DNA from: Escherichia phage JLBYU24
Sequence record: OK272476.1
Strand: one strand, 5' to 3'
Length of the DNA: 64,000 nucleotides
Below are positions 35,601 through 38,796 of the stretch, one piece after another (the first letter of the stretch is position 1; the number at the start of each line of letters is the position of its first letter). Below the pieces are notes generated by a model, which ran no database searches, was not told where the DNA came from, and worked only from the letters and a program-made list of their open reading frames with translations. Made by a program: the position numbers and the translations under genes.

Positions 35601-35630
35601 AAAAGCCCCAACCTTTCGGCTAGGGCTAAG
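35601..35630 (-). terminator. GAAA-tetraloop terminator (copy 1 of a 30-nt repeat)
   Basis: Minus RNA AGCCCUAGCC-GAAA-GGUUGGGGCU then UUUUU, immediately downstream of ORF 35635..36108. Confidence 0.6.
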
Positions 35631-35634
35631 AATG

Positions 35635-36108
35635 TTATTTGATTTGTTTAGCAGACCAAATGCGGTCTTTAATAATTTTTTGGATGTCTTCAACATATTC
35701 AAGAGAGTGAACATGTGGGTTATCTTTGAAACTATAAGCACGAGCTAGCTTTTGGCCTTCAGTTTTAATTACTAAAAGCTCTTTAAGGATAGCTTCATAT
35801 TTGGAGATAATTCCTTTAACAATATTTTTCTCTTGTGCGACTTTAGGATCTGCTTTAGGAGCAGGTTTACCTGAAGCCTTTGCAAAAGCAGCTCCAGTAG
35901 CAACTAAACTTTTCCAGGCCATACTAACTGCATTTCCCGTAAATCCTTCCGCTTTCATATCGCGAGCAAATTGGAATCGTGACTCATCGGAAGCATCTTT
36001 ATAGGAATATTTACCCGCGGCAATGGCAGCTTTTGCAACAGCTTGAATTTCAGTGCTAGATGCTTCATTTAACACCGCTTCATTTAAAAATTGAGCATAT
36101 GATTTCAT
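35635..36108 (-). CDS. Internal-protein-like (capsid-targeted) protein
   Basis: 157 aa; N-terminus MKSYAQFLNEA resembles the IP capsid-targeting sequence; Ala/Lys-rich. Confidence 0.6.
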   Translation of the reverse strand: MKSYAQFLNEAVLNEASSTEIQAVAKAAIAAGKYSYKDASDESRFQFARDMKAEGFTGNAVSMAWKSLVATGAAFAKASGKPAPKADPKVAQEKNIVKGIISKYEAILKELLVIKTEGQKLARAYSFKDNPHVHSLEYVEDIQKIIKDRIWSAKQIK

Positions 36109-36154
36109 CTTATTTCCTGTTTTAATTTGTAGATTTAATATACTTATTTATACT

Positions 36155-36185
36155 AAAAAGCCCCAACCTTTCGGTCGGGGCTAAG
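36155..36185 (-). terminator. GAAA-tetraloop terminator (copy 2), end of tRNA/small-RNA transcription unit
   Basis: Minus RNA AGCCCCGACC-GAAA-GGUUGGGGCU (10-bp stem) then UUUUU. Confidence 0.65.
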
Positions 36186-36189
36186 CCTT

Positions 36190-36498
36190 GCGGCAACCTT
36201 GTCGGGGTTCCACCTGCTAAGGCAAGTGTTTGTACGAAACGCCGGGATTCGAACCCGGTTATTAAGTAGTTGACGCTACTCAATATTTTTAAAAGGCCAT
36301 ATCTCGACCATATCCGAACGTTCCGTCAAAAACGCTACTCGGCTTACGGCAAAGATATTTCCTCGAATCGATAATTCGGTGCGCCGTTTCTGCTGTGATG
36401 TAAGGGGGCATTAACCGATCGTAAAGATTTGTTAATGCCAGTCCTTACCCAGGGAACATCAGTCCGACGACTTACCGGTAGCGACCCGGTTTCTTGTT
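36190..36498 (-). ncRNA. Structured small-RNA region downstream of tRNA-Arg (candidate T4 species-1/species-2-type stable RNAs), including a tRNA-like element at about 36234..36325
   Basis: No ORF; canonical T-arm CCGGG-TTCGAAT-CCCGG with 7-bp acceptor pairing CGGAACG/CGTTTCG but a non-canonical 60-nt interior; 9-bp inverted repeat GGCATTAAC/GTTAATGCC. Confidence 0.45.
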
Positions 36499-36574
36499 TG
36501 GTCGAGGCAGTAGGGATCGAACCTACGACCTAGGACTTAGAAGGTCCTTGCTCTTCCTTCTGAGCTATGCCTCG
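36499..36574 (-). tRNA. tRNA-Arg (anticodon UCU), CCA encoded
   Basis: Manual fold: acceptor CGAGGCA/TGCCTCG, anticodon stem AGGAC/GTCCT, loop CTTCTAA, T-loop TTCGATC. Confidence 0.85.
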
Positions 36575-36756: not shown

Positions 36757-36831
36757 TGGTGGCCCTGGGTGGAATTGAACCACCATCTGGCGATTATGAG
36801 TCGCTTGCTTGAACCTTCCAGCTACAGGGCC
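36757..36831 (-). tRNA. tRNA with CAU anticodon (Ile-lysidine type as in T4, or Met), CCA encoded
   Basis: Manual fold: acceptor GGCCCTG/CAGGGCC, anticodon loop CTCATAA. Confidence 0.75.
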
Positions 36832-37003: not shown

Positions 37004-37009
37004 AAATAT

Positions 37010-37660
37010 TTATATATTGTTAATTTGATTTAGAATTCTTTTTGCTTGAGTATGACTTACGCCAATATGCTTAGCATATTTAGACAATTCGCCACGTTTA
37101 GAAAAATCATATAATTTAGAAATTTCTATTCTTCTTTTTCTTTCATCCGCAGAAACTTTTGCTTCGTTTGCTTTTGCTATTTTACGTTTAGCTTCTTGAG
37201 AATGAGTTTTACCAGCAAAGCCATTCTTCATTAATCCATTTGAAGACCATCCTTTTAATTTTCCGTTAGAATGTGCCTTTTTAACACCCAATGAAATTAA
37301 TTCGCGTTGCTGATCTGTCATAGGATAATTATTTATATGGTCCCATCCACCTTCACCTCCAAGTTTTAAATTATACACATCTGGTCTATTTAAAAACTCT
37401 TCTGTGACAATATTTTTCTCGGCTTCAAGCATAGATTCTTTATCGTCAAAATACTCTAATATTTCTTTAGAAAAATTTTCTATACCATATTTATCTTGGG
37501 CTCTTTTTAATAATTTACCAGAACCCATATATCCATCATCTAAATTTTCGGTAGAATGCACACCAATATAAATTTTATTATTAATTTTATTTGTTATTTT
37601 ATAAAGATAAAAATGCATATCAGTCCCTAATAAAGAACTGAGCGTCTCACGACGAGTCAT
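37010..37660 (-). CDS. GIY-YIG homing endonuclease (Seg-like) inserted between the tRNA subclusters
   Basis: 216 aa; GIY-YIG motifs FYLYKITN...KIYIGVH, conserved R/E/N positions, basic C-terminal DNA-binding region; start may be Met at 37618. Confidence 0.8.
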   Translation of the reverse strand: MTRRETLSSLLGTDMHFYLYKITNKINNKIYIGVHSTENLDDGYMGSGKLLKRAQDKYGIENFSKEILEYFDDKESMLEAEKNIVTEEFLNRPDVYNLKLGGEGGWDHINNYPMTDQQRELISLGVKKAHSNGKLKGWSSNGLMKNGFAGKTHSQEAKRKIAKANEAKVSADERKRRIEISKLYDFSKRGELSKYAKHIGVSHTQAKRILNQINNI

Positions 37661-37990: not shown

Positions 37991-38506
37991 TTAAAGCAAA
38001 TTAAACATTTTAACAGTCGGCAAAACAATTTCTTTTTCTATATAAGAGTATTTAACACTCTCAACTACGCGCAGAAAATCATAATCATAATATTCAGAAG
38101 CACTGCCTAAAATATTAATAAGTCCTTCAAGCACTTTATTACCATTCACAAAGAATAAGTCAAATACACGTTCTTCGTCTTCTTCGGATTTATTACCAAG
38201 GTCAACTTCTATGTCAAAGACCTTTTTAATGAATTCTGGATAAAGTTGTTCTGAGAACAGTCCTTCAACCAAGTATTCATAAATAAAAAGCGATTGCTCG
38301 CTGAACAAGCCATTACCACAATAACGTTCAGCTTTAGTACTAGAATGTCTGCTTTTAAACTTCTTTAAAAGATATTGGAATTGTAAGATTTCATGCTCTT
38401 CTACGCCAAACAGTGTTTTAGTTTTATAGTTGTCACCATCATTTTCCCAGGTAGTGACATCAATTACGTAACCCTGTGGAATTGTAGTACCTAAACAAAT
38501 ATTCAT
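37991..38506 (-). CDS. Hypothetical protein (171 aa)
   Basis: ORF track. Confidence 0.65.
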   Translation of the reverse strand: MNICLGTTIPQGYVIDVTTWENDGDNYKTKTLFGVEEHEILQFQYLLKKFKSRHSSTKAERYCGNGLFSEQSLFIYEYLVEGLFSEQLYPEFIKKVFDIEVDLGNKSEEDEERVFDLFFVNGNKVLEGLINILGSASEYYDYDFLRVVESVKYSYIEKEIVLPTVKMFNLL

Positions 38507-38796
38507 TTGCTCACCATATTAATGTAAGTATATTCAATACATTCAAGACCCAAAGGATTCTTGAAAATATCATATTCAAGAGGACCTTTTTCCGTTTCAA
38601 TAAAGAAATCAAAATTTACTGTATTAAATTTACGGTCTTCCTTCACTAATTTAACTTGAGAAGATGAACGGTCAACATAAACCTTTTCAACTTCAAAACA
38701 TGTTAAAACACCATAATCATCAATCAAGGCTTTAGCCGCGTCTTGATCATATTTATATCCATTTTCAATTGATGATACTTTAGCATAAAGAATCAT
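38503..38796 (-). CDS. Hypothetical protein (97 aa)
   Basis: ORF track, ATGA coupling. Confidence 0.65.
   Translation of the reverse strand: MILYAKVSSIENGYKYDQDAAKALIDDYGVLTCFEVEKVYVDRSSSQVKLVKEDRKFNTVNFDFFIETEKGPLEYDIFKNPLGLECIEYTYINMVSK

Follow-up and report, generated by a model that had tools for sequence, protein, structure and literature searches.

The species 1 and species 2 RNAs of bacteriophage T4 have been known since the 1970s, are abundant late and, about fifty years on, are still without an assigned function (PMC12685909, PMC9697503, PMC3014915). Northern blots established both as stable late RNAs (PMC9697503, PMC3014915); for the species 1 RNA, a stable product of about 140 nt was shown in T4 (PMC9697503), and the corresponding locus in Escherichia phage JLBYU24 is described here from its sequence. 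In the T4 reference genome, rnaD (species 2, 119 nt) lies one base past tRNA-Arg, and rnaC (species 1, 139 nt) lies six bases beyond rnaD. Our literature search, which reached short of the 1970s–80s primary papers and the 2003 T4 genome review, found no assigned function or published structure for either RNA. Here we describe the JLBYU24 locus and a comparative analysis of the two RNAs that it carries.

The rnaD–rnaC segment of the JLBYU24 tRNA operon

The DNA analysed is a 64,000-nucleotide stretch from JLBYU24 (sequence record OK272476.1), referred to below as the window. A 501-nt query around the region of interest was 100% identical to Enterobacteria phage GiZh (Tequatrovirus) and matched 769 phage records; judged by these matches, the source of the window is a T4-like phage (Tequatrovirus). 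ARAGORN and Rfam placed nine tRNA genes in the window, with tRNA-Arg(UCU) last. Because all of these genes lie on the minus strand, the region has to be read on that strand, downstream of tRNA-Arg, and all features described below are minus-strand features.

An earlier note on this DNA had described a strongly structured, ORF-free interval between tRNA-Arg and a terminator, and had likened its position to that of the T4 species 1 and 2 RNAs. Each of these observations held. The upstream operon neighbour is tRNA-Arg(UCU) at 36499–36574, with an encoded CCA (ARAGORN; Rfam RF00005, 68.1 bits), and the tRNA operon ends at an intrinsic terminator at 36154–36182, AGCCCCGACC-GAAA-GGUUGGGGCU followed by UUUUU (hairpin 36159–36182). 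The stretch between them contains no ORFs of 60 aa or more, only mechanical ORFs of 21–58 aa. Folding beats chance: the z-scores are −4.56 (rnaC), −3.10 (rnaD) and −6.95 (the complete 351 nt), and none of the shuffled sequences (200, 200 and 100, respectively) folded as well.

Pairwise alignment showed that the window and T4 are collinear through tRNA-Arg, rnaD, rnaC, trailer and terminator, with a base-for-base alignment to T4 rnaD and rnaC. The rnaD homologue (T4 species 2 RNA) delimited in this way is 120 nt long and occupies 36378–36497. The spacer GAAUUA (36372–36377), recognised from the T4 alignment and from other genera, separates it from the 139-nt rnaC (T4 species 1 RNA) at 36233–36371, an assignment that draws on the T4 alignment, the GiZh annotation, a predicted fold in the shape of a tRNA-like four-way junction, and a covariance model. 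The GiZh record carries the entry 'rnaC, small stable RNA, species 1 RNA' at a position equal to window 36233–36371, and the mature ends of both RNAs in JLBYU24 were taken from the T4 and GiZh annotation. The rnaC sequence is identical to that of T4 at 138 of 139 positions, and a homology search matched 747 phage records. More diverged is rnaD, with approximately 88% identity to T4 rnaD and identical conserved ends; its homology search matched 734 phage records at 77–100% identity. Beyond rnaC, folding and comparison with relatives identified a trailer (36185–36228) of three small hairpins, at 36211–36228, 36195–36209 and 36185–36194 (the last with a GCAA loop), which are retained even where a phage lacks rnaC. 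On this alignment evidence we are almost certain that the region consists of orthologues of T4 rnaD and rnaC and is the last segment of the phage tRNA operon, transcribed from the minus strand up to the terminator. The species 1 and 2 RNAs themselves are already known, and in this respect the region is a rediscovery.

Both ends of rnaD are conserved, the 5′ one over ~40 nt and the 3′ one over ~25 nt, and the hairpin between them is variable. The 5′ block common to 14 variants consists of hairpin 1, ACCGG-GUCGCUA-CCGGU (5-bp stem, 7-nt loop; 36474–36490), followed by GUCGUCGGACUGA. Folding and the 14 variants define this hairpin, in which four of the five pairs are invariant and the remaining pair changes from A-U to G-U in one variant. 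The 3′ block, UCACAGC(A/U)GAAACGGCGCACC, is near-identical in the 14 variants. The 9-bp inverted repeat pointed out in the earlier note, GGCAUUAAC/GUUAAUGCC, is present at 36407–36439; inverted-repeat analysis places it in the apical hairpin of rnaD, an element that some variants have swapped wholesale for unrelated hairpins and that in JLBYU24 is altered relative to T4 rnaD by compensated changes. The consensus fold of the 14 variants (RNAalifold and pair counts) is closed by GUCGUCG/CGGCG(C)AC. One internal pair is U-A in 7 sequences and A-U in 6, four pairs of the variable stem are compensated, and the invariant helices give covariation evidence neither for nor against. Since G follows ...CACC where T4 has A, a CCA-like rnaD end is not encoded in JLBYU24. 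We regard rnaD as an independent module composed of a 5′ hairpin, a long stem and a freely replaceable apical hairpin. The hairpin-1 loop is also complementary to a GUAGCG motif in rnaC; we judged this match to be at chance level, and rnaC and rnaD occur independently.

Covariation and the fold of rnaC

The two computational follow-ups proposed in the earlier note, an Infernal/Rfam scan and a covariation analysis across T4-like genomes, were both carried out. At the gathering threshold and at E up to 10, no Rfam family covered rnaC or rnaD, and the sole related match for the two RNAs was a sub-threshold tRNA-Sec, which is the best related match to rnaC (17 bits against a gathering score of 47, E 1.3). 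The covariation analysis supports a tRNA-shaped fold of rnaC. It used 22 distinct sequences from about ten genera, in which arm 1 of the RNA occurs in two sequence types. For type I (12 sequences), an end-to-end model was 94.3% paired and had two-sided change at 15 pairs. For type II (10 sequences), RNAalifold independently gave the same four-way architecture with 16 compensated pairs, and pair counting put the paired fraction at 92.9% and the number of pairs with two-sided change at 17. In a joint alignment of all 22 sequences, the shared core was 92.7% paired and two-sided change was found in 22 of 36 pairs. None of 500 shuffles reached 22 of 36, a control that overstates significance because the 22 sequences are related, and slid controls were 34–46% paired. 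We consider it highly probable that rnaC folds, kissing loops included, into a tRNA-shaped four-way junction with an acceptor-like stem made from the RNA's own ends.

In this fold, the acceptor-like stem pairs nt 2–8 (CGAUUCG; 36364–36370) with nt 131–137 (CGUUUCG; 36235–36241). The pairing is supported by covariation in the joint alignment and also appears in the unconstrained MFE fold, in which the internal CGGAACG pairs locally within the long hairpin. The A4-U135 pair of Tequatrovirus becomes G-C elsewhere, and C2-G137 becomes A-U in Pectobacterium phage PM2. Two U·U mismatches are present in 20 of the 22 sequences; this tandem (nt 5–6 with 133–134) is U-A/C-G in Yersinia phage TG1 and U-A/U-A in PM2. 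The tRNA-like element that the earlier note had described is really there, but its anatomy was misread: the acceptor is formed by nt 2–8 with 131–137, not by the internal CGGAACG.

Arm 1 (nt 9–78; 36294–36363), defined by folding and covariation, comprises a 3-bp base helix and a long irregular hairpin, and has the same architecture in both sequence types across genera. It contains the unpaired G74 G75 (36297–36298), of which G75 is invariant and G74 is present in at least 90% of sequences. The A-rich junction linker UUUAAAAA (nt 79–86; 36286–36293), with A83, A84 and A86 invariant, leads into arm 2 (nt 87–112; 36260–36285), a 10-bp stem with a 6-nt loop in which nine of the ten pairs covary. 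The perfect T-arm reported in the earlier note, CCGGG-UUCGAAU-CCCGG (nt 114–130; 36242–36258), is present, 100% paired and has two covarying pairs. The 3′ tail is U-ACA-A (36230–36234). Its U138 is invariant; the next three bases vary, from ACA in JLBYU24 to UCA in TG1 and CCA in both PM2 and the Marfavirus group. A pairing of the rnaC 5′ end with the T-loop was rejected, as it is lost in PM2.

Among the unpaired segments of rnaC, two stand out as the most conserved: the apical loop of arm 1, with the sequence UUGACG (nt 43–48; 36324–36329), and the loop of arm 2, CGUCAA (nt 97–102; 36270–36275). These two loops are complementary at six of six positions. The arm 1 loop overlaps the strand that the earlier note had taken as the 5′ side of the acceptor. 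Across the 22 sequences the predicted kissing helix is 99.2% paired, and most of its positions never vary. In TG1 the loops read UUGAUG/CAUCAA, which changes C:G to U:A, and in the Marfavirus group (four phages, three of these in the joint alignment) they read UUGGCG/CGCCAA, which changes A:U to G:C; PM2 retains four kissing pairs. Because two independent double substitutions occur at different positions and both hairpin stems covary, we argue for a 6-bp loop–loop kissing helix that would close the rnaC body on itself, with the caveat that the covariation fits intramolecular and intermolecular pairing equally. We found no published report of this interaction in a search whose reach fell short of the early primary papers. 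Reading TTGACG/CGTCAA as DNA half-sites for a protein is less parsimonious, because both motifs fall exactly in the loops of covarying RNA hairpins.

Distribution, proposed maturation and possible roles of rnaC

Beyond Tequatrovirus, we found rnaC in Karam-, Kagamiyama-, Moon-, Kanagawa-, Teguna-, Gelderland-, Mosuguk- and Marfavirus, and in Citrobacter phage Ursula, which is without genus assignment. In most of these genera it lies inside the tRNA cluster, often preceded by a tRNA CCA and an AAUUA-type spacer and followed within a few bases by a tRNA; in Karam-, Kagamiyama-, Moon-, Gelderland- and Tegunavirus the spacers are 5–7 nt long, and in many cases rnaC comes directly behind a tRNA CCA. 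The genera beyond Tequatrovirus carry rnaC but not rnaD, and two Kanagawavirus loci contain rnaC with no tRNAs within 300 nt. As to INDEPENDENCE of rnaC/rnaD, there are several relatives that have tRNA-Arg, rnaD, the trailer and the terminator but precisely lack rnaC, reading ...GGCGCACCGAA|CACUUGCC... at this point. Since it is absent from close relatives and solitary in two Kanagawavirus loci, rnaC is dispensable in some backgrounds and is not always in a tRNA transcript. Both RNAs behave like independent gain/loss cassettes in phage tRNA clusters, and rnaC is the size of a tRNA gene.

A T4-inclusive family pattern, used as a single exact pattern on 185,579 bacterial and archaeal species genomes (one per species), gave no matches, and this one exact-pattern scan suggests that the rnaC family may be confined to phages. 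In metagenomes the T4-inclusive pattern returned 11 contigs: two chance matches and nine copies from Tequatrovirus that were nearly identical. With a loose IMG/VR pattern, TCAACT...GGYTCGAATCC, most of the matches were unrelated tRNAs; a stricter one returned 4 viral contigs only and 0 metagenome contigs. We also built a covariance model, R1, from the type I alignment. This model gave a single match in the window (166.5 bits) and, on ~0.9 Mb of viral loci, detected no distant homologues, only real tRNAs at 16–28 bits.

We propose that the tRNA maturation machinery releases and stabilises rnaC through its acceptor/T-arm half, a step to which we would give even odds. RNase P would cut on the 5′ side of rnaC and again at the tRNA that follows; the 3′ end would be trimmed and might have its CCA repaired. 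Because 20 of 22 sequences have two U·U mismatches in the acceptor, RNase P or the CCA-adding enzyme would not necessarily recognise it. More tentatively, rnaC may mimic a tRNA without decoding and occupy a factor, of the host or the phage, that recognises the tRNA elbow or the acceptor/T-arm half; its putative role would then be that of a decoy or cofactor, not an adaptor. A bolder extension, which we regard as unlikely, would make rnaC the founder of a phage-only family from about ten T4-like genera: class II tRNA-shaped, kissing-locked RNAs that are matured by the tRNA machinery, possibly CCA-tailed or charged, and that act on a host factor which binds tRNA, as its decoys or cofactors, counter-defence being one example; if true, this would give the T4 species 1 RNA a function. 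For identity, rnaC fold and mechanism taken together, we estimate a probability of roughly 0.62. The comparative analysis supplies a fold of rnaC backed by covariation, tRNA-like in its top half and locked in its body by the kissing loops, and it points to concrete mutants (loop swaps, acceptor changes and GG changes). The remaining interest of the locus lies in its long-unexplained function and in this testable structural model.

It is also conceivable, although improbable, that the region has no trans-acting product and is instead a cis-acting 3′ segment of the operon, with structured spacers that guide processing or shield the tRNAs from 3′ exonucleases. Such a segment would fit the location between the last tRNA and the terminator and the conserved trailer hairpins, but in other genera rnaC lies mid-cluster or alone, not at the operon end. 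The 3′ end of rnaD is complementary at 8 of 9 positions to the rnaC 3′ strand and could shape the precursor, and rnaC can be dispensed with in relatives, both of which suit a cis-acting element; against this, discrete stable RNAs accumulate in T4 (PMC9697503), and loop–loop pairing with a tRNA-like top half exceeds the needs of a protective hairpin.

A second explanation, that rnaC, rnaD or both are regulatory sRNAs that base-pair with host or phage mRNAs, appears doubtful to us on the conservation of rnaC itself, in which the most conserved loops pair with each other and show compensatory changes. Moreover, no trans-acting sRNAs have been characterised in T4 (PMC3014915). The explanation draws its support from the RNAs being abundant, late and non-coding (PMC9697503) and from rnaD, the ends of which are strongly conserved, unpaired stretches included. 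When a T4-like phage was evolved on one host, all of its lines convergently acquired a SNP in rnaD (PMC12685909); this host adaptation is a hint that the region affects fitness and would also be consistent with a regulatory RNA.

We find it very unlikely that the 94 nt at the 3′ end of rnaC constitute a long (pseudo-)tRNA of the class II type, with CGGAACG/CGUUUCG as acceptor, CUUUUAA as anticodon loop (Lys, UUU), arm 2 as variable arm and a 45-nt 5′ leader. The earlier note had proposed this 7-bp acceptor helix around a 60-nt interior. The complementarity (7–8 bp) between CGGAACG (36319–36325) and CGUUUCG (36235–36241) does exist, and exactly 60 nt separate the CGGAACG strand from the T-arm, but this is not the conserved pairing. 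Among the 22 homologues, only one pair of the helix shows two-sided change, three positions are unpaired in 6, 9 and 13 of 22 sequences, and the helix breaks in other genera. It also excludes the kissing loop and a hairpin stem that is 100% paired with five of five pairs covarying, and forcing it yields −36.9 versus −50.2, a cost of 13.3 kcal/mol. Tested on three alignments and by constrained folding, the helix was rejected as a functional pairing. It is the two ends of the 139-nt RNA that make the acceptor, which leaves no place for a 45-nt leader with a 93-nt 'long tRNA' behind it; the T4 RNA is likewise annotated as 139 nt, not ~94. In addition, the putative anticodon loop falls within the variable linker and its stem would have three of five pairs.

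The same helix also appears in detector output. The weak tRNA-Sec match in Rfam uses it, and exactly this pairing underlies a 94-nt 'tRNA-Lys(ttt)' given by ARAGORN and GenBank in phage G2133, the junction linker of which has one A fewer. ARAGORN made no tRNA-Lys calls of this kind on 18 other loci, and neither ARAGORN nor RF00005 called rnaC in the window; we read the G2133 call as an artefact of the detector. The further option offered in the earlier note, a degenerate or intron-containing tRNA (the latter taken as a cloverleaf with a self-splicing group I intron in its anticodon loop), gained no support either. The RNA is without an anticodon arm, there are no credible Rfam tRNA or intron matches at E up to 10, and the 60-nt 'interior' consists of conserved, covarying helices. 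A decaying pseudogene is disfavoured because rnaC shows compensatory substitutions that such a pseudogene would not keep.

That the stretch encodes small proteins is scarcely credible: mechanical ORFs of 21–58 aa overlap it and CDSs ('hypothetical protein') are annotated there in many GenBank records, but the substitutions are compensatory for RNA pairing, relatives differ by indels of 1–3 nt, a 40-aa ORF crosses the rnaD/rnaC boundary, a junction that relatives have deleted, and the curated T4 annotation has RNAs, not CDSs. The comparative analysis in this way explains the occasional 'tRNA-Lys' or 'hypothetical protein' annotations at the locus.

rnaC compared with tRNAs and other tRNA-like RNAs

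With its tRNA-like top half, rnaC is yet no tRNA. It has a 7-bp acceptor stem and a 5-bp T-arm with the T-loop consensus. It has no anticodon arm of 5 bp with a 7-nt loop; the loop of arm 2 has 6 nt and is predicted to pair with the loop of arm 1, and the linker 'CUUUUAA', which could pass for a Lys anticodon loop, is constant in neither sequence nor length. The counterpart of a D-arm is the 3-bp base helix with the conserved unpaired G74 G75. In Q7622, a single case, G74 is lost together with the canonical T-loop, and from this one co-loss it is possible that G74 G75 is the analogue of D-loop G18 G19 docking on the T-loop. Set beside the N73-CCA end of a tRNA, the JLBYU24 tail reads U-ACA, and that of PM2 and the Marfavirus group reads U-CCA; the annotated ends (U1...A139) would leave rnaC without CCA. 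The best non-family match of R1 was a class II tRNA-Ser. In the alignment the acceptors and the T-arms of the two RNAs correspond, the variable arm of the tRNA falls on arm 2 of rnaC, and its N73-CCA falls on U-ACA.

Several features link rnaC to class II tRNAs such as phage tRNA-Ser. Both have a 7-bp acceptor and a T-stem of 5 bp capped by a UUCGAAU loop; in both, a long extra arm lies immediately 5′ of the T-arm and an unpaired base precedes an xCA tail; and within tRNA clusters the spacing of rnaC is tRNA-like. In contrast to these tRNAs, rnaC has neither an anticodon arm nor an anticodon loop of 7 nt, a single arm of 70 nt stands in place of the D and anticodon arms, the arm tips are predicted to kiss, the acceptor holds the tandem U·U, and ARAGORN and RF00005 leave it undetected in the window.

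The tRNA-like domain of tmRNA resembles rnaC in that the acceptor is made from both RNA ends and adjoins the T-arm, with the rest replacing the anticodon side. We nevertheless dismiss the idea that rnaC is a small tmRNA-like molecule, charged and acting on ribosomes, since it lacks the conserved G3·U70, the alanine identity pair (the G·U at the third acceptor pair is missing in 21 of 22 sequences, which have G-C or A-U instead), a coding segment with a tag reading frame and the nested pseudoknots, is only 139 nt long, and is not called as tmRNA by ARAGORN, with Rfam giving only a 10-bit T-loop match.

YrlA RNAs, which are bacterial and phage Y RNA-like tRNA mimics, and viral tRNA-like structures differ from rnaC in domain order; rnaC has no Ro-binding stem, and none of the Rfam families of this type matched at E up to 10. 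What these RNAs have in common with our reading of rnaC is the concept: a non-decoding RNA that carries a tRNA-like module which can be handled by tRNA enzymes.

Absence of rnaC and variation at a possible tertiary contact

The rnaC cassette is precisely absent from IME281-like T4 relatives (loci L141, L145, L146, L147 and L149), in which the junction reads ...GGCGCACCGAA|CACTTGCC... These loci still carry rnaD, together with the trailer hairpins and the terminator. In Enterobacter phage Q7622 (L132, 426-568), rnaC is present with a non-canonical T-loop, UGCAUGC, and also lacks one residue of the unpaired, conserved GG dinucleotide found where arm 1, the long arm of the molecule, has its base. 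The two changes together may represent co-variation of a tertiary contact.

We also found that the 3' portions of the two RNAs, GAAACGGCG in rnaD (36382-36390) and CGGCGUUUC in rnaC (36236-36244), are complementary at eight of nine positions, and that they pair with each other in the minimum free energy fold of the whole 351-nt transcript. This predicted pairing could be relevant to processing of the precursor.

Annotation of rnaC and rnaD in other phages

In phage G2133 (MK327928; L161, 373-466), the 3' 94 nt of rnaC, whose A-rich junction linker has one A fewer, are designated 'tRNA-Lys(ttt)' both by ARAGORN and in the GenBank record, which is probably a false tRNA annotation. Many GenBank phage records overlay rnaC or rnaD with 'hypothetical protein' CDSs (for example, L134-L136, 316-453), some of them accompanied by annotated ribosome-binding sites; these CDSs are probably mis-annotated non-coding RNA genes.

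Genes flanking the two RNAs

The next gene downstream, a 157-aa ORF (35635-36108), is bracketed by two near-identical minus-strand intrinsic terminators with GAAA tetraloops (36159-36182 and 35604-35627), of the form AGCCCCGACC/AGCCCUAGCC-GAAA-GGUUGGGGCU.

Within the tRNA cluster, no tRNA-Pro homologue was found in the whole 64-kb window. The exact site that tRNA-Pro takes in T4 and in the Tequatrovirus GiZh is occupied here, between tRNA-Ser and tRNA-Gly, by a 655-nt segment (37005-37659) carrying a minus-strand GIY-YIG/NUMOD3 seg-like homing-endonuclease gene (ORF 37010-37660). A second difference from GiZh lies just upstream of the cluster, where approximately 526 nt (38011-38536) stand in place of approximately 20 nt. 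The minus-strand tRNA with a CAU anticodon (36757-36831) is labelled tRNA-Met by ARAGORN, whereas its orthologue is annotated as tRNA-Ile in GiZh and T4, presumably because the CAU anticodon carries a lysidine modification.
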